16,188 bases of DNA from IMG/VR virus record IMGVR_UViG_3300021963_000032. One strand, 5' to 3'. This stretch comes from a virus (lineage: Duplodnaviria; Heunggongvirae; Uroviricota; Caudoviricetes). The translations under genes were made by a program, and so were the position numbers. Shown in pieces: positions 468-11,465 of this stretch; the stretch's first letter is position 1, and every line of letters starts with the position of its first letter. The notes beneath the pieces were generated by a model. The model saw only the letters and a list, made by a program, of their open reading frames with translations, did no database searches and was not told the origin of the DNA.

Positions 468-1241
468 ATGAACAAGAGAATAGAAGATTATAACAAAGTC
501 CTACCAATCATTGAACTATATCGATGTGTGCAATCTGAAGGAAGCCGATTTGGCAGACCTACAGTTGCAGTACGCACAACCGGATGCACGCATAGATGTT
601 TCTTTGGAGAAGGAGGCTGGTGCGATAGTTGGTATACATCGATCCACCCAGAGAAAGGAACATTTACATTCCAGGATATTATTAACATCTACGATGAGAA
701 TCCACACATTAAAGAAATGATGTTGACGGGAGGATCACCAACAATGCACCCAGCATTGGTAAACGAACTAACACACTTCGCTAATGAAAGAGGAATCCTC
801 ATCACAATCGAAACTGAAGGTAGCCATTTCGTACCTACTGACTTTCCTATTGGCCTTATATCTCTCAGTCCAAAGTTTGGTAATTCTGTACCCGTACTTG
901 GTGCTGTTACGCCTCAAGGAGCGATTGTGGATCAAAAAATGATTGATCAACACAATAAGTTTAGAATGAGGCTTGCTACAATGAGTGAGATGATTAACTT
1001 CCATGCAGATTATCATTTCAAACCAGTATGGGATGGAACAGAGAAGAACTTAGAAGAGATCGAAGAACTTCGAGTATTACTTGGTATTCCAAAAGAAAAG
1101 ACGTATATTATGCCAGCAGGCGATACACGAGAGGAGCTAATTAAAATGTATCCACTAGTGTTTGATATGTGTGCTGAGAGAGGTTATAACATGACGGGGC
1201 GAGATCACATTATCGCTTTCGATACAAAAAGAGGAGTATAA
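468..1241 (+). CDS. queE: 7-carboxy-7-deazaguanine synthase (radical SAM, QueE)
   Basis: N-terminal IIELYRCVQSEGSRFGRPTVAVRTTGC matches the QueE F.SIQGEG...G.P..F.R..GC pattern. It also has a Cys triad CTHRCFFGEGGWCDS, LTGGSP and IETEGS, and is co-located with folE and a QueD-like gene. Confidence 0.9.
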   Translation: MNKRIEDYNKVLPIIELYRCVQSEGSRFGRPTVAVRTTGCTHRCFFGEGGWCDSWYTSIHPEKGTFTFQDIINIYDENPHIKEMMLTGGSPTMHPALVNELTHFANERGILITIETEGSHFVPTDFPIGLISLSPKFGNSVPVLGAVTPQGAIVDQKMIDQHNKFRMRLATMSEMINFHADYHFKPVWDGTEKNLEEIEELRVLLGIPKEKTYIMPAGDTREELIKMYPLVFDMCAERGYNMTGRDHIIAFDTKRGV

Positions 1242-1408
1242 TGCACGAACTGTTACACTTTATAGGAATATGTCCTGATAGTTTCACTCACACTAGCTTG
1301 ATTGAAGTTGTAGTGACAAACTATCAAACACTAAATGATTTAATTAATTTAAACTTAAAAAGCTATGTTGCTAAATTCACATCAAATAGAGGAGCATCTA
1401 CAAACTAA
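1241..1408 (+). CDS. Small hypothetical protein (55 aa, MHELLHFIGICPDSFTH...), missed by the ORF track
   Basis: ATG overlaps the queE stop (TAATG at 1239-1243) and the frame is open to TAA at 1406-1408. It fills an otherwise empty 120-nt gap and overlaps the start of the next gene. Confidence 0.6.
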   Translation: MHELLHFIGICPDSFTHTSLIEVVVTNYQTLNDLINLNLKSYVAKFTSNRGASTN

Positions 1409-1847
1409 TGGTTTGGGAAGCAAAGCTCAGGTAGGTTATGATTTGACCTTAAAATCAGTAAAGATGGTTATGGGTGGTGCAGTTACTCAAGACAAGACTA
1501 TCGTAGAAGATTACACAGAAGTAACTCCATTCCAAAATGCAAATGGTAAGTTTATGTTCAAACTTTCACCAGGAGTTTATTCGCTGACATTCGAGCAAGG
1601 TTGTAAGCTACCCAATAACGTAACTGCATTCATTCGTCACCGTTCAAGCGTACTACGATGCGGTGCAGAGATCACTTCGGGAGTTTATGATCCAGGATTC
1701 GAGGTGGATGAGATGGGTGGTGTAATGTTTGCACACAGAGTGCTTGTTATTGAAAAAGGAGCTAGAGTAGCTCAGATTATCATGATGGAGAATACTCCAG
1801 CCGATATGTACGATGGTCAATGGCAGGGTAGTAAAGACTTGAAGTAA
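1365..1847 (+). CDS. dut: Trimeric dUTPase / dCTP deaminase-fold protein (archaeal-type dUTPase-like)
   Basis: Motifs GYDLTL, RSSVLRCG, GVYDPGF, GARVAQ and C-terminal YDGQWQG. The Dcd catalytic Glu (the TLE motif after DPG) is not evident, which favours a dUTPase over a deaminase. Confidence 0.75.
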   Translation: MLLNSHQIEEHLQTNGLGSKAQVGYDLTLKSVKMVMGGAVTQDKTIVEDYTEVTPFQNANGKFMFKLSPGVYSLTFEQGCKLPNNVTAFIRHRSSVLRCGAEITSGVYDPGFEVDEMGGVMFAHRVLVIEKGARVAQIIMMENTPADMYDGQWQGSKDLK

Positions 1848-2188
1848 TGAAGAAGTTTATAGAAGTAAGAGTAGATGTAGAAGGATTACATCACTGGCCG
1901 GATTGCAACTTGCCACACGTAGAGTATCTAAAGCACCTACACAGACATACATTCCAGATTAGCTGTAGAGCTGAGGTGAAGCATGGTGATCGTGATATCG
2001 AGTTTATCGATTTCAAACACAAATTGAAAAAGTATATTGCAAGCACTTGGTACGATCCAACTTACGGCTGTTGTAACTTTGGTGCAATGTCATGTGAAAT
2101 GATTGCAGAAGACTTACTAAATATGTTTGGACTTTGTCTATGCTCGGTGTCGGAAGATGGAGAATTTTTTGGTATAGTTGAGATATGA
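1847..2188 (+). CDS. dpdL: QueD-like T-fold protein with LxxxHRHxF motif (DpdL-like; putative CDG decarboxylase or atypical QueD)
   Basis: LKHLHRHTF replaces the QueD CxxxHGH motif. It also carries IEFIDFK and SCEMIAE (QueD: T.E.IA) and terminal VSEDGE (QueD: V.Et), and lies between queE and folE. Confidence 0.65.
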   Translation: MKKFIEVRVDVEGLHHWPDCNLPHVEYLKHLHRHTFQISCRAEVKHGDRDIEFIDFKHKLKKYIASTWYDPTYGCCNFGAMSCEMIAEDLLNMFGLCLCSVSEDGEFFGIVEI

Positions 2189-2628
2189 AGATAACTTATT
2201 TATGTGGACGCATCTGCAGTGGTAAGAGTACTTACAAACCTGACACTAGAAGATTAATGGTATCCGATATTGTTCGTAATGTTGTTAGAAGTAATGACAG
2301 AGAGCGATTGCAAAACTCAATGCACCTAGAGAATGACATCTTACACGGCTTGGCAATGTGCATCGATTACGATATGGAGATGGGTGTGCAAGAGTTAATC
2401 ATCGATGGTATTCGACAACCGTCAATCTTAGAAAGACTATCAGCAGTTTATCCAGGAGAGATAGTATGGCTAGAGGTTTCACTCGAGGAACGCAAAAGAC
2501 GTTACGAAGCTAGAGGAGCTGAGAAAGATACAGAACCATTTGAAGTAGCAGATAATAAGCCAATAGAGTTGGAATGTCAGAAAATTTATAGTATATTCAG
2601 TAAACAATTAAAAGTTATAAACAATTAA
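2185..2628 (+). CDS. P-loop nucleoside/nucleotide monophosphate kinase-like protein
   Basis: Walker [10 protein letters not shown], followed by IIDGIR and a lid-like [10 protein letters not shown]. This pattern is typical of the adenylate/dephospho-CoA/dNMP kinase-like fold. It overlaps the upstream gene by ATGA. Confidence 0.7.
2569..2599 (+). promoter_or_regulatory. Putative Bacteroidota-type promoter upstream of folE
   Basis: TTG (2569-2571), a 20-nt spacer and TATATTCA (2592-2599). The geometry matches other copies in the window. Confidence 0.45.
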
Positions 2629-2630
2629 AT

Positions 2631-3278
2631 ATGGAGTTAATTACAAAAGCAAATGGAAACATTCCTCGTTCAGAAGAGGAAAAAAAGCAGATGATCGAAA
2701 AGGCTGCTGAGTACTACGGAGGATTCTTAACAGCATTAGGTTTTGATTGGAAAGCTGATCCGCATAGCGATCGTACTCCACACCGTGTAGCTAAAGCTTG
2801 GGTAAATGATTTGATCGCTGGATCTATCTCACCAGAGCCTGAAGTAACAGCATTCCCTAATGACGAAGGTTATACGGGTCTTATCTGTCAGACACGCATT
2901 CCAGTAATGAGTATGTGTGCACACCACAACTTAACTTTCTCAGGAGTAGCTCACGTAGCTTACATTCCAGGAAAGGATAAGGGTGACTTGGTGATTGGAT
3001 TGAGTAAGTTGAATCGTATTGTAGATTTCTACTCTCGTCGTCCAAACATTCAAGAATCTTTAACTAAGCAAATTCACGACCACATTGAGAAGTTGTGTGT
3101 AGGTAATAGAGGAGTTGCAGTAGTAATCGAATCACAACACAATTGTGTTAGATGTCGTGGAATTAAACAAGACAGTGTAATGAAGACTTCACAGATGTCA
3201 GGATATTTCTGGACCAATGAAATCGGTACACGTCAAGAATTTTTTAACCTAATTGATCAAAGTCGTTATGGAGTTTAA
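2631..3278 (+). CDS. folE: GTP cyclohydrolase I
   Basis: [52 protein letters not shown] and HNCVRCRG, which include the Zn ligands and conserved FolE motifs. Confidence 0.95.
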
Positions 3279-3621
3279 TAGCAGTAGCACCAGTACTGGT
3301 ACATCATACGTTAACGATAAGTTACTGTACAATGGAATAAATGTAACACCAGGAAATAGCTGGATTACAAGTGGAACAACAATCACGGGAGGATTAACCT
3401 TAAACAACAATACAACAAGTATGAATCAACAAGTAAAAGTAGCAGTGTTTCAAGTAGAGCGAAACAAGCACAATGAGATCAAGTCGTCAACATTTATTGA
3501 TGAGTTTTGGATCGAAAAGAAACCAGGCATCTCAATCGACTTTGCAGTAGCTAAAAAGCTGAATGGCGAGTATGAAGCAGATGAGATTGTAATCAAAGAA
3601 ATCTACACAGTTACTTTGTAA
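3268..3621 (+). CDS. Hypothetical protein with S/T/N/G-rich N-terminus
   Basis: The track starts this ORF at TTG 3253. The in-frame ATG at 3268 ([11 protein letters not shown]...) overlapping the folE end is more likely. The stop at 3621 is 1 nt before the next start. Confidence 0.7.
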
Positions 3622-3622
3622 T

Positions 3623-4408
3623 ATGGATTTCTACGTTATATCACCAGTTAGCAACTTGGAGCCAATGAAGCTGGGAGATCGAATCTTTGCATTGGCTCAC
3701 TTATGGGTACAGTTTCCTGAGTATCGAGAGTTTATCAAAGCTCGTAAGCAAGAAGGCTGGTTTGTAACATTAGACAACTCAGCAGCAGAACGAGCATTAG
3801 TTACTGAAGATATTCTAATCAACATCTGCCATGAGTTAATGCCCAATGAGGTAATCGCACCAGACGTGTTGTTTGACAAAGACGCAACAATTGCAAACGC
3901 AAAGTCTTTCAGAGATCGTATGGAGAGTGAAGGCTTACTTGGCAAAATCGATATCTTTTTCTGTCCACAAGGTAAAACAAAAAAAGATTGGCTAGAAGCA
4001 TATACGTTTGGAATGTTTGAAGAGTGGGTTGATGTAATCGGATTCTCTAAGATTGCAATTCCAAATGCATGGTTAGAAGATTATAAAGACGATCAGGGAA
4101 TCAAAGAAGCACGATGGATGGCTTATGATTACTTGAAGGCAGAAGGTGCTTTGGTTAAACCAATCCACTGTCTAGGTCAAGGAGATCCAAGCGAGTTCAG
4201 CTACTATGGCCACCCAATGATGCGAAGCACAGATTCAGTGTATCCAGTATGGGCAGCTATCAATGGTCAGGACTTTAGAAAAGATCATGAGACTCGAACA
4301 CCAACACCACACAAACTTCTTGAAACATATGACATGAAGGATGTGAATATGGAGCTAGTCAAAAAGAACATTCAGTACTTGAGACTCAGCTGCATGGATT
4401 ACGCATAA
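3623..4408 (+). CDS. dpdA: TGT-fold (TIM barrel) guanine transglycosylase-like protein, DpdA-like (possibly DpdA3 type)
   Basis: The motifs appear in TGT order: TLDNSA (cf. DSGG), APDV, CPQG (cf. VQGG), IGFS (cf. IGG), IHCLG (cf. H.LG) and STDS (cf. nucleophile Asp). It is the last gene of the deazaguanine cluster. Confidence 0.65.
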   Translation: MDFYVISPVSNLEPMKLGDRIFALAHLWVQFPEYREFIKARKQEGWFVTLDNSAAERALVTEDILINICHELMPNEVIAPDVLFDKDATIANAKSFRDRMESEGLLGKIDIFFCPQGKTKKDWLEAYTFGMFEEWVDVIGFSKIAIPNAWLEDYKDDQGIKEARWMAYDYLKAEGALVKPIHCLGQGDPSEFSYYGHPMMRSTDSVYPVWAAINGQDFRKDHETRTPTPHKLLETYDMKDVNMELVKKNIQYLRLSCMDYA

Positions 4409-5894: not shown

Positions 5895-5995
5895 TAATAC
5901 TAAAACTAATCTTTGCAGCTGCATTAGGTGCACTCTGCATCACTGGAATGATATTATCTGTAGCAATAATTAACGATTCACTTAAAAAGAAATAG
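5891..5995 (+). CDS. Small single-pass membrane protein (34 aa), missed by the ORF track
   Basis: MIILKLIFAAALGALCITGMILSVAIINDSLKKK. It has an ATGA overlap with the upstream stop, TAG at 5993-5995 and the next ATG at 5998, with a hydrophobic stretch followed by a basic tail. Confidence 0.65.
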   Translation: MIILKLIFAAALGALCITGMILSVAIINDSLKKK

Positions 5996-5997
5996 AC

Positions 5998-6276
5998 ATG
6001 GCATACGTAGAAGTAGATATAGACTTAGATGATTTTTATGATGATTTAGGTGAGTGGGAAAAGGAAGAGCTTGTAGAGAAGCTTATCAAGGATGGTTATG
6101 AGATGAAAGATCCGAACAGAGAGTATGAGGAAGATGTTGATGTGGATAGTGTGGAGTTTAATGGAAACCCTCTCGACTATGCATGGAAGGCAATGATCAA
6201 GAAGATTGACCACAGTCGCTATCAACTGACACCAGAGCAGGAAGAAATGTTGTTCAACTTAGCAAAGAGCCTATGA
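5998..6276 (+). CDS. Hypothetical acidic protein (92 aa)
   Basis: ORF beginning MAYVEVDIDLDDF, very Asp/Glu rich and tightly packed. Confidence 0.75.
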   Translation: MAYVEVDIDLDDFYDDLGEWEKEELVEKLIKDGYEMKDPNREYEEDVDVDSVEFNGNPLDYAWKAMIKKIDHSRYQLTPEQEEMLFNLAKSL

Positions 6277-6719
6277 GTACGACATTTGCAATTAGGACTC
6301 CTGACGGAAAGCTAAAACCTATAGCTTATAGAGTGAACGGTGGTAAGATACATTTCACAAACGACATTGCTGAGTTTATGTTAGAGGAGAGTTTACCGGT
6401 AGAGGCAACTGACAACTCACCACAAGGTATCTTCACAATTGGTGACATAAGGGAGTGCATCCGTAGACAAGAGGAAGAAGAAGAGTATGAGGAGCAGTCG
6501 TGGATTAAAGATCCTACCAAGATAGAAAGGCGCAAACGTAACTCAATCTTTGTACCGATGGATGATGCATGGCATAAAGAGCATGACTTTGTTGAAGTAA
6601 CGGAGTGGTCGAATGGAGAAGGGTGGGACATTACAATCTCTGACGAAAAACAGATATCACTACACCATACAGAGTTTGCAGTTATCAAAGAATTAATAGC
6701 TTTATTGGAAAAAGATTAG
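6273..6719 (+). CDS. Hypothetical protein, apparently two modules joined by a poly-Glu linker
   Basis: An N-terminal module, then QEEEEEYEE, then a C-terminal module containing DFVEVTEWSNGEGWDITI. Confidence 0.75.
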   Translation: MSTTFAIRTPDGKLKPIAYRVNGGKIHFTNDIAEFMLEESLPVEATDNSPQGIFTIGDIRECIRRQEEEEEYEEQSWIKDPTKIERRKRNSIFVPMDDAWHKEHDFVEVTEWSNGEGWDITISDEKQISLHHTEFAVIKELIALLEKD

Positions 6720-6727
6720 TATATTTA
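6697..6727 (+). promoter_or_regulatory. Putative promoter for polA
   Basis: TAG (6697-6699), a 20-nt spacer and TATATTTA (6720-6727). The ATG follows at 6732. Confidence 0.5.
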
Positions 6728-6731
6728 GCAT

Positions 6732-8972
6732 ATGAAAAGTTACAAGATAATAACCGACGAGGCTGGTGTCGTAGAATTAGCCAACTATATCAAGAACGGT
6801 AACATCATCGCGTATGATACTGAGACGACTAGTGTCAATCCTAGAACTGGTCAGATCATTGGATTCTCAGTTTCAGCTAATATCGGTGAAGGTTATTACT
6901 TTCCCACACGTAAATGGGATGCAGATGCTCAGCAACTAGTTGATCTTACGTTAGGTGGAAAGAGTTGTGATGACATTGCTGTACAGCTTATCAAAATGTT
7001 GTTAGATAAAAAGCTTGTCATGCACAATGCATCTTTCGACGTTCGGTACACGAAGAACTTCTACGGAGTTGATCTTCGTGATGCTCTCTATTGTGATACC
7101 ATGTTACTACGACACACCCTCAAAGAGGATGGTCCATTTGGTTTGAAGGATATTGCAATTGAGATTCAGAATGAGTTAGGTTTAGATGCTGAGAAGGATG
7201 CCAATGAAGAGCAGATTCGATTGAAAGAATCTATTCAAAACAACGGTGGAAGCATCACTAAAACTAACTACGAAATCTTCAAAGCTGATATGAACCTATT
7301 GGGAGAGTATGCAGCAGCCGATACCGATTTAACGCTTCGAGTAATGACTCACTACTTGCCAATCCTAAAGGAGCAGGAGTTGTGGGATTTCTTCTTTGAA
7401 GAGGAGGTAATGCCTCTTTACAAGACCGTTACTATTCAGATGGAAGAAACGGGAACTCAGCTTAACATTGAGTTGATCGAGAAGACTAAGAAGGATATCA
7501 ATGCTGATATCGCTAGACTCGAGGGTGAGATTATCTCAGACTTAATGAAGATACCACAAGTTCAGCAGTGGGTTGTTAAACGAGCGTTAACTAATCACCC
7601 ACCCAAGAAAAGAGGTCACTATGGTAAACGAGTAGAAGCTAAGTTGGATCAACTAATTGATCGTGATGGTGGAGTAGCATTCCTAAAGAGTGGTGATCCG
7701 AATGACCTTAACGAGCAAGATAAGATTGCAATCAGCTTAGACCTATTAAAGGAGAAGGATGGTACATTTGTAAACATCAGCAGTAAGCAGCAGCTATCCG
7801 AAATGTGCTTTAAGTATATGAAGATCAAACCTATTAGTCAGACTCGTAAGGGTACAGATCAGTTTGATGACGGAATGATTGATGCGTTAAGTAAGGAGCA
7901 CGGTTGGGCTTTTAAGCTTCGTGACTACAACAAACTAAATAAGATTCAATCAGCCTATGTTGATCGATTCCTAGACAATAGTGAGAACGGAAGATACTAT
8001 TGGTACTTCAAACAACACGGAACTACCTCAGGTCGATTTAGTTCTGACTCACAACAACTACCTCGTGTACTTGAGGAAGGAGAGCAAAGTGAATTAGTAT
8101 TAAGTTACAATAACATTATTCGTAGCTTCTTACAAGCAGAGGAGGGACGTAGGTTTATTATCTGTGACCAATCATCTCTTGAGCCACGAGTGTTCGCATC
8201 AGTAAGTAATGACCCTAACCTAATTAACGTATTTCTTGACAATGAGGATTTATATTGTAGAGTGGCTATTCAAGCGTTTAAGCTTAAAGGCATGTCGGCG
8301 AAGAAGAGCGATGATAACTACGTCAAGAACATTCGTCCAGAACTTAGACAGAGAGCAAAAAGTATTGCGCTTGCTATTCCTTATGGAGCAGGTGCGTGGC
8401 AGATCGGTCAATCGCTCAACATTCCAATCGGAGAAGCACAAAAAATGATCGATGGTTACCTAGAAGGTTTCCCTGAGTTAGCTAAGTGGATGAGTGATAG
8501 CCACCTGAGAGCACAGACTTTTGGTTATGTGAAGAACAAGACTGGACGTATTCGTCACTTAGACCGAGTAAAGTTAATCTATGAGAAGTTTGAGAATAGT
8601 CTTATTGAACCAGGACCATTTGCTCAAATGAAGCGTATGGCTAAGACTCCGGAGCAGACAGCACAACTAATGAAGCTTCGTATGGAATACAAGAACGGTC
8701 TTAACAACTGTAAGAACTTTCAGATCCAATCACTAGCAGCTTCAATCATGAACAGATCTGCTATTCAGATTCACAAGCGATTCAAAGAGGAAGGACTAGA
8801 TGCTTGTATCATGCTACAGATTCACGATGAGTTTGTTGTCAATGCAAGTGTAGAGTGTATGGATAGAGCTTGTGCAATTACTAAAGAGTGTATGGAGAAC
8901 ACAGTATCAATTGCAACTGGATTGATTGCAGAGCCAAACATCGCAAAAGATTTCGGAGAAGGACACGTTTAA
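6732..8972 (+). CDS. polA: Family A DNA polymerase with 3'-5' exonuclease and no 5'-3' exonuclease domain
   Basis: ExoI AYDTETT, ExoII HNASFD, ExoIII YAAAD, then QHGTTSGRFSS, motif A CDQSSLEPR, motif B RQRAKSIALAIPYG and motif C QIHDE. Confidence 0.95.
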   Translation: MKSYKIITDEAGVVELANYIKNGNIIAYDTETTSVNPRTGQIIGFSVSANIGEGYYFPTRKWDADAQQLVDLTLGGKSCDDIAVQLIKMLLDKKLVMHNASFDVRYTKNFYGVDLRDALYCDTMLLRHTLKEDGPFGLKDIAIEIQNELGLDAEKDANEEQIRLKESIQNNGGSITKTNYEIFKADMNLLGEYAAADTDLTLRVMTHYLPILKEQELWDFFFEEEVMPLYKTVTIQMEETGTQLNIELIEKTKKDINADIARLEGEIISDLMKIPQVQQWVVKRALTNHPPKKRGHYGKRVEAKLDQLIDRDGGVAFLKSGDPNDLNEQDKIAISLDLLKEKDGTFVNISSKQQLSEMCFKYMKIKPISQTRKGTDQFDDGMIDALSKEHGWAFKLRDYNKLNKIQSAYVDRFLDNSENGRYYWYFKQHGTTSGRFSSDSQQLPRVLEEGEQSELVLSYNNIIRSFLQAEEGRRFIICDQSSLEPRVFASVSNDPNLINVFLDNEDLYCRVAIQAFKLKGMSAKKSDDNYVKNIRPELRQRAKSIALAIPYGAGAWQIGQSLNIPIGEAQKMIDGYLEGFPELAKWMSDSHLRAQTFGYVKNKTGRIRHLDRVKLIYEKFENSLIEPGPFAQMKRMAKTPEQTAQLMKLRMEYKNGLNNCKNFQIQSLAASIMNRSAIQIHKRFKEEGLDACIMLQIHDEFVVNASVECMDRACAITKECMENTVSIATGLIAEPNIAKDFGEGHV

Positions 8973-9056: not shown

Positions 9057-9467
9057 ATGAGCACAGAAGTCACATTTGACGTCCTATTTCGGGACCTATT
9101 TAACGCGCATTCGCGTTTCGGATCTATTTCAGAGATCAAAATTCCACACCCAGTAGATATCTACGAACACTCAGACGGTCTTGTTTTTGAGATCGCATGC
9201 ACCGGTCTTACTAAAGACGAGGTTGATATTGATGTTGAGTTGGATGTTCTAAAGGTAAGTTATAACAAACCACAACACCATGATGGCATTGAAGAAGCTC
9301 GCACATATCAGTGTAGAGGAATTGCACGCCGTTCGTTTAATCTAGCGTATAAGATATCACCAAAATACACTCTATCAGAGAGTGCAGCTGTAATGGAGGA
9401 TGGTCTATTGATTATTGAAATTCCATTTGCTGAAGAAGCTAAACCAAAAAAGTTACAAATTAAGTAA
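9057..9467 (+). CDS. hsp20: Small heat shock protein (Hsp20/IbpA family)
   Basis: Alpha-crystallin domain pattern PVDIYE...EIACTGLTKDEVDIDVE...RGIARRSF...A.MEDGLL.IEIP with a C-terminal KKLQIK (I-X-I like). A strong SD AAGGAGGT lies at 9042-9049. Confidence 0.92.
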   Translation: MSTEVTFDVLFRDLFNAHSRFGSISEIKIPHPVDIYEHSDGLVFEIACTGLTKDEVDIDVELDVLKVSYNKPQHHDGIEEARTYQCRGIARRSFNLAYKISPKYTLSESAAVMEDGLLIIEIPFAEEAKPKKLQIK

Positions 9468-9476
9468 CTAAAACGG

Positions 9477-9506
9477 TTGTTCTTGGGTCTTTTTTCCGTA
9501 TATTAA
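9477..9506 (+). promoter_or_regulatory. Putative promoter for groES-groEL
   Basis: TTG (9477-9479), a 19-nt spacer and TATATTAA (9499-9506), located intergenically. Confidence 0.5.
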
Positions 9507-9528
9507 ATTTTATAAACAGTTATACAAC

Positions 9529-9822
9529 ATGAGTAAATTTCAACCAGTTAGCGACAAGCTAGTGTGTCTTCCACTCGAGCAAGACGAAATGAGCGCAGGA
9601 GGGATCATCCTTCCAGAGCTAAGTGACCAGAAAACCCTAAAGGCTAGGGTAGTAGTTGCGGGGAAAGGATTTTGGGCAGCTCCAGGTTTGTTCATTGAGA
9701 CAACCCTTACAGAAGGAGATATAATCCTTTATCAGCGATTCGCTGCACAGACATTTGAGTACGATGACTTGGAGTACCATATCATCCAAGAGCGTGATGT
9801 ATTAACAAAAATCAACGACTAA
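9529..9822 (+). CDS. groES: Co-chaperonin GroES (Cpn10)
   Basis: FQPVSDKL, mobile loop EMSAGGIILPE, VVVAGKG and GDIILY...Y.IIQERDVL. It lies directly upstream of groEL. Confidence 0.93.
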   Translation: MSKFQPVSDKLVCLPLEQDEMSAGGIILPELSDQKTLKARVVVAGKGFWAAPGLFIETTLTEGDIILYQRFAAQTFEYDDLEYHIIQERDVLTKIND

Positions 9823-9824
9823 GA

Positions 9825-11465
9825 ATGGACAATAAAGTAAAGATTATCAGTTATGATACTGAAGCACGAGACAAAGTGCGAAATGGTGTGAACAAGTTAG
9901 CTAAGGCTGTTTCATCTACATTAGGACCAAAGGGTCGTAACGTAATGATTGAAAAAGAGAATGGCTCTCCAGTGATTACAAAAGATGGTGTAACAGTTGC
10001 AAAAGAGTTCTTCTTGAAAGACCCAGTAGAAAACATGGGTGCTCAGGCAATCAAAGAAGTATCAGTTCGTGCTGCTAAGATGGCTGGAGATGGTACTACA
10101 ACTGCAACGGTTCTAGCTTCGTATATGTACAACGAGGGAATCAAAGCTATCAACGCAGGAGTTAATCCAATTGAATTAAAAAGAGGAATGGATTTGGCTA
10201 CAAACCAAATCATTGAAAACCTACGTGACTTGAGTCGTGATGTAGTTACTAACGAAGAGATTCGTCAAGTGGCAACCATCTCAGCTAACAACGACACTTC
10301 AGTTGGAAACATCATTGCAGAGGCAATGGAGAGTGTTGGTAAGGATGGAGTAATCCAAGTAGAGGAAAGTAAAACTTCTGAGACTACCTTAGAGGTGGTA
10401 GAAGGTATGCAGATCGAACGTGGATTCATTTCACCATACTTTGCAACTAATCAGGCTTCGATGACTTCTCAACTAGAGAATCCAATGATCTTGATCTGTG
10501 ACAAGAAGATCAGCAGCATTAAAGAGATCCTACCATTACTAGAAAACTGTAGCAAGCAAGGTAAACCTTTGTTAATTGTAGCAGACGATGTAGATGGTGA
10601 AGCTTTAGCTACAATGGTAGTAAACAAAGCTCGTGGTATCTTAAACGTATGTGCTATCAAGTCACCAGGATTTGGAGACCGTAAGATTCATATGCTTGAA
10701 GATATTGCTATATTGACTGGTGGTCAAGTGGTTTCAGCAACTAAGGGAATGAAGCTAGAGAAGCTTACTCTTGATATGCTAGGAACAGCTCGTATGGTAA
10801 TTGTAAGCCAAAGTGAAACTGTTATCGTAGATGGTGCAGGAGATACTGACGCAATTGCTGGACGTGTTGAGGACATTAAAACTCAGTACGAAAAAGCAGA
10901 AAGTGATTACGAGAAGCAAGGAATCAAGGAGCGTCTAAGTAAGTTGATGGGAGGTGTTGCAGTATTGAACATCGGAGCAGCAACTGAGATTGAGCTTAAA
11001 GAAAAGAAAGATCGAGTTGACGATGCACTACACGCTACGCGAGCAGCAGTAGAGGAAGGTATCGTTGCAGGAGGTGGTGTTGCTTTAATGCAAGCTATCA
11101 AAGAATTAAAAGTTACAACAGAGAATGACGATCAAATTTTAGGTGTAGGAATCATCACAAGAGCGTGTTCCGCACCTTTCAATGCGATTGTTAATAATGC
11201 AGGTAAAAGTCCTGATGCAATTGCTCAACGTATCACTCTTTTCAAAGAGGGAGATGATTCGAGCTTTGTAGGTTACGATGCACGCCACGATGAGGTATGT
11301 GATATGTTTAAGGCTGGAATCGTGGATCCAACCAAAGTATCTCGTACAGCATTGGAGCTTGCCAATTCTGTAGCTGGAACGCTACTCACCACGGAGTGTG
11401 TTATTAGTTTTGATCCCGAACAAGAAGATAAAGAAAAGAATTCTTCAGTTCCAGACTACTACTAG
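9825..11465 (+). CDS. groEL: Chaperonin GroEL (Cpn60)
   Basis: [40 protein letters not shown] and [22 protein letters not shown]. The C-terminus lacks GGM repeats. Confidence 0.98.

Follow-up and report, generated by a model that had tools for sequence, protein, structure and literature searches.

A predicted nucleoside-monophosphate kinase in a phage 7-deazaguanine cluster and a candidate pre-replicative route to modified DNA

The window, by which we mean the whole stretch of 16,188 nucleotides of Caudoviricetes DNA analysed here (IMG/VR record IMGVR_UViG_3300021963_000032), has all of its long open reading frames on the + strand, and no near-identical phage record was found for it. It carries a cluster of deazaguanine genes (Table 1) that sits among RNR, helicase, RecA and PolA genes. 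QueD (PTPS) is encoded just upstream of the window, at 7321-7785 of locus L003, on the ~160-kb contig. The 55-aa ORF of the cluster was called at the same place in three contigs that carry the kinase sequence. PolA is followed in the window by genes for HSP20, GroES and GroEL (9057-11465), and the order PolA-GroES-GroEL is common to Flavobacterium phage immuto_2-6A.

Table 1. Genes of the deazaguanine cluster and the adjoining polymerase, in window coordinates.
Feature	Coordinates	Strand	Basis and remarks
QueE (7-carboxy-7-deazaguanine synthase, radical SAM)	468..1241	+	phrog_2076, 9.1e-48; NCBIfam QueE models all below their cut-offs
55-aa ORF	1241..1408	+	Gene call; no PHROG match, no family
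dUTPase/dCTP-deaminase-superfamily protein, candidate dNTP pyrophosphatase	1365..1847	+	Pfam DCD, 9.8e-13
DpdL (QueD paralogue, proposed CDG decarboxylase)	1847..2188	+	113 aa; 35% identical to phiST gp040; phrog_17812
Short-LID NMP-kinase-fold protein	2185..2628	+	147 aa; Pfam, motifs, fold model, dN/dS
FolE (GTP cyclohydrolase I)	2631..3278	+	Pfam, 5e-44
117-aa ORF between folE and dpdA3	3268..3621	+	No family; some relatives conserve it
DpdA3 (minimal TGT-fold transglycosylase, no Zn subdomain)	3623..4408	+	261 aa; 40% identical to phiST gp042
Family A DNA polymerase (PolA) with 3'-5' exonuclease domain; presumed incorporating polymerase	6732..8972	+	Pfam DNA_pol_A, 1.8e-58

An earlier, sequence-only reading of this DNA had placed an NMP-kinase-like gene between a DpdL-like gene and folE, and the details of the locus bear this out. 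The ATG of the kinase gene (2185) overlaps the TGA of the 113-aa gene upstream (1847-2188) as ATGA, its TAA (2626-2628) ends 2 nt ahead of the folE ATG (2631), and its product matches Pfam AAA_18 above the cut-off (3.8e-7). AAA_33 is matched as well (3.1e-5), and these two are the only families to pass our threshold of E<=0.01. All coordinates given in that reading were correct. The PHROGs match is phrog_19196, a family of unknown function. Searches returned 391 homologues clustered at 90% identity and, at the 50% level, again 391 representatives, and dN/dS against the closest relative is 0.08, which indicates purifying selection. On account of the many homologues and this low ratio, we conclude that the ORF at 2185-2628 is a real gene under selection. 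One homologue, at 3760-4200 of locus L014, is 84% identical and has an in-frame TAA inside; DpdL lies ~0.5 kb from it with no overlap, and this may reflect gene decay or a misassembly.

The nearest described counterpart is the system of Cellulophaga phage phiST, whose DNA is 100% dDG and which encodes FolE, QueD, QueE, the MazG-like gp039, DpdL (gp040), an "ATPase" (gp041, CGPG_00066) and DpdA3 (gp042) (Cui, Hutinet et al., NAR 2023, PMC10516641). Judged by its sequence, the window cluster is a new member of this phiST-type system (FolE, QueD, QueE, DpdL, DpdA3). The enzyme set matches, as does the local order DpdL-kinase, and identity to the phiST proteins is 40% for DpdA3 (over 255 aa, E 4e-62), 35% for DpdL and 30% for the kinase. 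DpdL carries LKHLHRHTF, which follows LxxxHRHxF where QueD has CxxxHGH, and across 14 sequences residues L28, H32, R33, H34 and F36 show no variation. The two systems differ in the pyrophosphatase, which is dUTPase/DCD-like in the window and MazG-like in phiST, in the placement of folE and the 117-aa ORF, which in the window separate the kinase from DpdA3, and in the genome that surrounds them, which is T4-like, of ~160 kb and with PolA for the window, whereas that of phiST is of 78 kb with Pol III alpha. QueC is absent from two relatives of the window, the complete genome G001 (159 kb, terminal repeats) and the 98% complete G003. Given this absence and the phiST-type enzyme set, the DNA is predicted to contain 7-deazaguanine (dDG).

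The structure of the kinase was modeled from an alignment of 14 sequences, which also served for the analysis of conservation. The AlphaFold model (pLDDT 92.8) shows the three-layer core, with NMP-binding helices and a LID, of solved NMP kinases. In Foldseek the short-LID adenylate kinases rank first (AK1, 5ycc, E 9e-9, TMq 0.75); UMP/CMP kinases (1uke, TMq 0.73) and the Sulfolobus adenylate-kinase-related protein 3lw7 come next, and thymidylate and polynucleotide kinases rank lower. The window protein shares with these short-LID enzymes (AK1, UMP/CMP kinase, 3lw7) the fold and the Walker A motif and, as judged by eye, would share a DGxxR-like motif and a basic LID, but identity is only 12-20% and the window kinase is shorter (147 aa). 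When PDB sequences were searched with a profile of the family, no kinase came back, only chance matches.

The motifs of the kinase are in keeping with this fold. The Walker A motif, GxxxxGK[ST], is N-terminal and reads GRICSGKS (residues 8-15). Three further motifs are VSxxVR (with R31), DGIRQ (D74-Q78) and the basic ERKRRYExR; within the alignment, G8, G13, K14, D74, G75, R77, Q78 and R103-R106 never vary, and R31 almost never does. By eye, R31, R77 and R103-R106 resemble the DxxR, DGxxR and LID arginines of adenylate kinase, so that the three motifs would seem to correspond to the two arginine motifs by which NMP kinases bind the acceptor phosphate and to their LID. In hydroxyl kinases, T4 Pnk among them, the Asp of DxxR acts as the general base. 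The equivalent position 28 of the window kinase varies between D and N; the family therefore has no invariant general base of the kind expected in a nucleoside or polynucleotide kinase, which we infer to fit a phosphate acceptor. No Pfam match was seen to CoaE (PF01121), thymidylate kinase (PF02223), the T4 gp1 dNMP kinase (PF21448) or guanylate kinase, and identity as a dephospho-CoA kinase, a thymidylate kinase or a member of the gp1 family was dropped for lack of a profile match. The sequence-only reading had named two identities that would speak against it, a dephospho-CoA kinase and a general dNMP kinase; the former finds no match, while the latter, despite the missing thymidylate-kinase and T4-type matches, is retained below as a rival. 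From the model and the motifs the gene product is predicted to be a nucleoside-monophosphate kinase, and in our best explanation it would be one dedicated to the DpdA3/DpdL system.

The kinase is bound closely to loci that encode DpdL and DpdA3. A tblastn search of 50,697 phage records with the kinase matched the phiST group and Chryseobacterium phage MA9V-3 and no others, and in both the gene order is DpdL-kinase-DpdA3. In IMG/VR, all 24 loci with a kinase homologue (36-87% identity) are deazaguanine clusters, with DpdL immediately 5' of the kinase in 23 and DpdA3 present in 20. Three of the four loci that lack DpdA3 end at most ~1.2 kb past folE or the kinase; in the fourth (L027), DpdA3 is expected at or beyond the locus end, judging by its twin L026. 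The reverse count was made on IMG/VR loci that extend 3.5 kb or more to each side of DpdA3, by subgroup alignments, as the all-lineage DpdA3 alignment was too divergent. A kinase was found within 2.8 kb of DpdA3 in 12/12 window-type and 57/57 immuto-type loci (median gaps 1.2 kb and 0.7 kb, respectively), that is in 69/69, although these loci derive from only about seven lineages and the counts therefore overstate independence. A dNTP-pyrophosphatase-like gene was near DpdA3 in 12/12 and 56/57 of the same loci.

The same arrangement extends to cultured phages, where DpdA3 occurs in seven lineages (the window type included), each with a P-loop kinase at most one or two genes away. These kinases belong to at least four unrelated P-loop families: AAA_18 in the window type, phiST (gp041) and MA9V-3; AAA_28 (phrog_2107) in CP220 (gp057) and immuto_68; a T4 gp1-like protein in Vibrio phage D479; and phrog_761 in Bacillus phage BSTP10. 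CP220 gp055, an HD+AAA_33 fusion, lies directly upstream of DpdA3. In contrast, no small ORF with an N-terminal Walker A motif occurred within 3 kb of DpdA1/2 in 17 IMG/VR loci or in nine GenBank loci (9g, CAjan, BA3, Bhz54, RHEph06, Yong-L2-223, Bipper, phiFN37 and Finch). Polymerase genes adjoin many of these control loci as well, and thus membership in a replication module does not by itself account for the kinase.

Gene fusions tie the kinase to the pathway as well. DpdL-kinase fusions make up nine representative clusters at 50% identity, and two viral contigs have such a fusion directly beside DpdA3. A kinase-FolE fusion is encoded by a 370-aa ORF without a stop at 5980-7092 of both L026 and L027, which come from different samples; its kinase and FolE parts are 54% and 79% identical to the window proteins. 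Six distant members of the kinase family were sampled. Four have DpdL and/or DpdA3 as neighbours, with a family B polymerase adjoining one and a FolE2-type cyclohydrolase present with one, and two lie outside any visible deazaguanine cluster. DpdL in turn occurs without an annotated adjacent kinase in other phages, for example ACP17, PA5oct and BUCT-ZZ01. Taken together, we regard the kinase as very probably a functional component of the DpdA3 system. The sequence-only reading had proposed co-occurrence with DpdA3 and DpdL as a check and absence from most homologous clusters as grounds for giving the idea up. Such absence is clearly contradicted by the loci: every DpdA3 locus with enough flank has a homologous or non-homologous P-loop kinase, which is fused to DpdL or FolE in places and is missing from the 26 DpdA1/2 control loci.

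Several loci seen in this survey have features of their own. The distant cluster at 1438-6402 of L166 encodes QueD, DpdL, the kinase, a DpdA3-like protein, a FolE2-type (PF02649) GTP cyclohydrolase and two dUTPase/DCD proteins, together with a weakly matching nucleoside 2-deoxyribosyltransferase-family protein and a phosphoribosyltransferase-like protein. The 332-aa protein P0260 (L170, 1701-2699) has a pair of P-loop kinase-like domains in tandem, of which the first belongs to the window kinase family, and lies in a phage replication region with no deazaguanine genes visible within 5 kb. In MA9V-3, the 293-aa protein XQU63047 (L001, 8120-9001) joins an HNH-endonuclease-like N-terminal half to DpdL and may be a true fusion or the result of an over-extended start; its N-terminal half was rejected as a dNTPase, since it resembles an HNH endonuclease. 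Bacillus phages of the BSTP10 type encode Gat-QueC, QueD and FolE, with kinase, DpdA3 and PolA consecutive, and BSTP10_076 was ruled out as a candidate, being an HNH endonuclease. The DpdA3-like gene of BSTP10 (L009, 5899-6687), BSTP12 and BSTP5 is labeled "polynucleotide kinase", "NadR" or "integrase" in GenBank, and these labels look like misannotations.

DpdA3 itself is modeled (pLDDT 92.8) as the TIM barrel of TGT (TMq 0.68), ~100 residues shorter than TGT and devoid of the Zn subdomain. D204, which is invariant, lines up with Asp280, the nucleophile of TGT, a weak sequence match that is backed by the fold. DpdA3 proteins are acidic, with a median pI of 4.96 and a net charge of -13, compared to 6.3 and -3 for DpdA1/2; this is at most suggestive and, like the missing Zn subdomain and the neighbouring kinase and dNTPase genes, would be an indirect hint at a free-nucleotide substrate. 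Among DpdA3 forms of at least 458 aa, a range that a fusion of ~410-450 aa would fall below, all that turned up were LAGLIDADG-containing versions, and no DpdA3-kinase fusion was found. Five metagenomic homologues of 463-490 aa (P0270-P0274) have DpdA3 interrupted by LAGLIDADG_3 (PF14528/PF14527) and bear an intein or a homing endonuclease. The C-terminal 258 aa of P0254 were ruled out as DpdA3.

The pyrophosphatase fold differs by lineage: dUTPase/DCD-like in the window type, MazG-like in phiST and immuto, and HD in CP220. CP220 has a canonical dUTPase elsewhere in its genome, and the HD protein of its cluster is therefore an extra one. The window protein matches the NCBIfam archaeal-type dUTPase model at 1.6e-24, below the cut-off, and its closest solved relative is PDB 9w59, a "probable dUTPase" (1.5e-11). 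The DCD-like gene is the sole dUTPase-superfamily member in complete window-type relatives, and so it is possibly an ordinary dUTPase.

These components can be arranged into a pathway that operates on the nucleotide pool. FolE, QueD and QueE would convert GTP to the free base CDG. The dNTP pyrophosphatase of the cluster would hydrolyze dGTP to dGMP, both removing the competitor and supplying the substrate on which DpdA3, as a minimal TGT barrel, would exchange guanine for the 7-deazapurine at the level of the free deoxynucleotide. DpdL would decarboxylate to 7-deazaguanine, with either the base or the nucleotide as its substrate. The kinase would then make the diphosphate, the host NDK would raise it to 7-deaza-dGTP, and the phage polymerase would incorporate it to give a fully substituted genome. 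The sequence-only reading had reserved a role for the "divergent PolA", which indeed starts (6732) 2.3 kb past DpdA3, but the polymerase beside related clusters varies (family A, family B, Pol III alpha). As the adjoining polymerase family is not constant, the special role of PolA as a dedicated partner was dropped; family A polymerases accept 7-deaza-dGTP anyway.

In the T4 hmC route, a dCTPase (gp56), a dCMP hydroxymethylase (gp42) and a dNMP kinase (gp1) act in turn. The proposed route would parallel this gp56/gp42/gp1 scheme and MazZ/PurZ of the Z-genomes, as it follows a like logic: a dNTPase removes the canonical dNTP by taking it to the dNMP, the dNMP is modified by a second enzyme, and a kinase and a polymerase complete the route. 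The enzymes are non-homologous throughout, and the modifying step here would be a TGT-fold base exchange; we know of no such exchange on free nucleotides. The Z route (MazZ, DatZ, PurZ) is summarised in PMC12783734 and PMC12697855. In the CP220/immuto systems, too, a P-loop kinase and a dNTP (pyro)phosphohydrolase flank DpdA3, but their AAA_28-type kinase (phrog_2107) is not homologous to that of the window. These systems encode QueC along with other tailoring enzymes and lack DpdL, whereas the window system has DpdL.

The accepted view differs. Cui et al. (PMC10516641) concluded, from the finding of DpdA3, that 7-deazaguanine modifications are all post-replicative, and stated that other deazaguanine phages lack homologues of CGPG_00066, which belongs to the window kinase family; no role was assigned to it. 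The same paper reports that reconstitution with DpdL and DpdA3 in E. coli failed, that the phages with DpdA3 are those with 100% replacement, and, by citation, that the dADG nucleoside occurs in the cytoplasm of CP220-infected cells. A modified-dGTP route was mentioned by Hutinet (2019) "as proposed for Campylobacter phages". In the literature to late 2025, 7-deazaguanine DNA is the standard example of modification at the nucleic-acid level (PMC10516641, PMC12783734), and a paper of December 2025 still uses it as such. No published proposal of a pre-replicative route by DpdA3 and a kinase was found in the literature to late 2025, within a scope of sources outside subscription journals. The sequence-only reading had summarised this state correctly, with post-replicative exchange by DpdA as the accepted model and kinases and the like as the mark of pre-replicative systems.

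A route ahead of replication, in which a dGTPase, DpdA3 (on dGMP), DpdL, the kinase and the polymerase would act in turn, is the best-supported reading of these data, and we give it a roughly even chance of being correct. The gene, its fold, the conserved NMP-kinase motifs, the constant association and the fusions are shown, whereas every substrate and the timing relative to replication are proposals, and the interpretation in the sequence-only reading is to that extent partly supported. It is favored by the NMP-kinase fold and motifs, by the 69/69 association, by the non-homologous kinases that take the same place, by the clean DpdA1/2 controls and by the fusions. Further points counted in its favor are that complete related genomes have no Pfam match to thymidylate kinase, the T4-type dNMP kinase or QueC, that replacement is 100% in DpdA3 phages, that the dADG nucleoside has been seen in infected cytoplasm, and that DpdA3 is acidic and without the Zn subdomain. 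Against it we count that DpdA3 keeps the TGT nucleophile Asp, that all characterised TGT and DpdA enzymes, to our knowledge, act on polynucleotides, and that Cui et al. concluded otherwise. The DCD-like protein may be a plain dUTPase, the kinase-FolE fusion also fits GTP supply, some DpdL phages have no annotated kinase next to DpdL, two of six sampled distant family members lie outside clusters, and only about seven lineages are represented; these, too, weigh against it. More tentatively, and with somewhat less than even confidence, DpdA3 could be the first TGT-fold enzyme to exchange the base of free dGMP, forming with the dGTP pyrophosphatase, DpdL and the kinase a complete pathway to 7-deaza-dGTP, such that all fully substituted genomes (dDG, dADG, fdPreQ1) would be made through the nucleotide pool.

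The kinase could instead phosphorylate GMP, recycling guanine to GTP for FolE with the help of a purine phosphoribosyltransferase or the host Gpt, in which case DpdA3 may still act on DNA. The exchange, at whatever level it occurs, frees one guanine per modified position, and each CDG costs one GTP; such recycling would sustain the very high flux that 100% replacement demands. The kinase-FolE fusion in two contigs, the occurrence of the kinase solely with high-flux DpdA3 systems, and the presence of a phosphoribosyltransferase in 63/80 immuto-type DpdA3 loci and in some window-type relatives are all what recycling would lead one to expect. Yet neither Pfam nor PHROGs gave a phosphoribosyltransferase in the window, fusions of the kinase to DpdL are far commoner than that to FolE, the kinase has no Pfam guanylate-kinase match, and the co-occurring dNTP pyrophosphatases would be unexplained. 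Hosts, moreover, possess a Gmk of their own. On balance we consider recycling unlikely. A small purine-type phosphoribosyltransferase is encoded at 5801-6196 of L012, 8641-9051 of L034 and 4035-4553 of L131, and could serve guanine recycling or the synthesis of a 7-deaza ribonucleotide.

Large phages often carry dNMP kinases, and the window kinase could be a general enzyme of this sort, akin to T4 gp1, which raises dNTP supply and came to lie in the cluster as part of a nucleotide-metabolism and replication module. The RNR, helicase, RecA and PolA genes around the cluster agree with this, and complete related genomes gave no Pfam match to thymidylate kinase (PF02223) or to the T4-type dNMP kinase (PF21448), so that the window kinase is possibly the only such kinase of the phage. 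The DpdA1/2 control clusters, however, adjoin polymerase genes too and are without a kinase. A general supply role also sits poorly with the fusions to DpdL or FolE, with different kinase families occupying the same place beside DpdA3, and with the 69/69 association, and we judge it improbable, more so than recycling. Least probable is an end-healing role, in which a 5'-polynucleotide kinase and a phosphoesterase would repair nicks from massive post-replicative exchange: the fold matches include the polynucleotide kinase of Clostridium thermocellum (TMq 0.67), and CP220 has its HD+kinase fusion and D479 a metallophosphoesterase near DpdA3, but adenylate and UMP/CMP kinases fit the fold better, the Asp at DxxR varies between D and N, the fusion partners are small-molecule enzymes, and there is no ligase among the cluster genes with an assigned family (the 55-aa and 117-aa ORFs have none).

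The kinase and the candidate dNTP pyrophosphatase thus emerge as fixed parts of every DpdA3 system that we examined (one immuto-type locus has no dNTPase-like gene), the kinase being sometimes fused to DpdL. That both were left out is a possible reason for the failed reconstitution in E. coli, and the present analysis names the missing parts. How 100% of G is replaced becomes a directly testable question. Should the pre-replicative route hold, it would provide a new enzymatic source of 7-deaza-dGTP and a new class of substrate for the TGT superfamily, and the modified G of these phages would be made as a free nucleotide ahead of DNA copying, contrary to the published swap in finished DNA.
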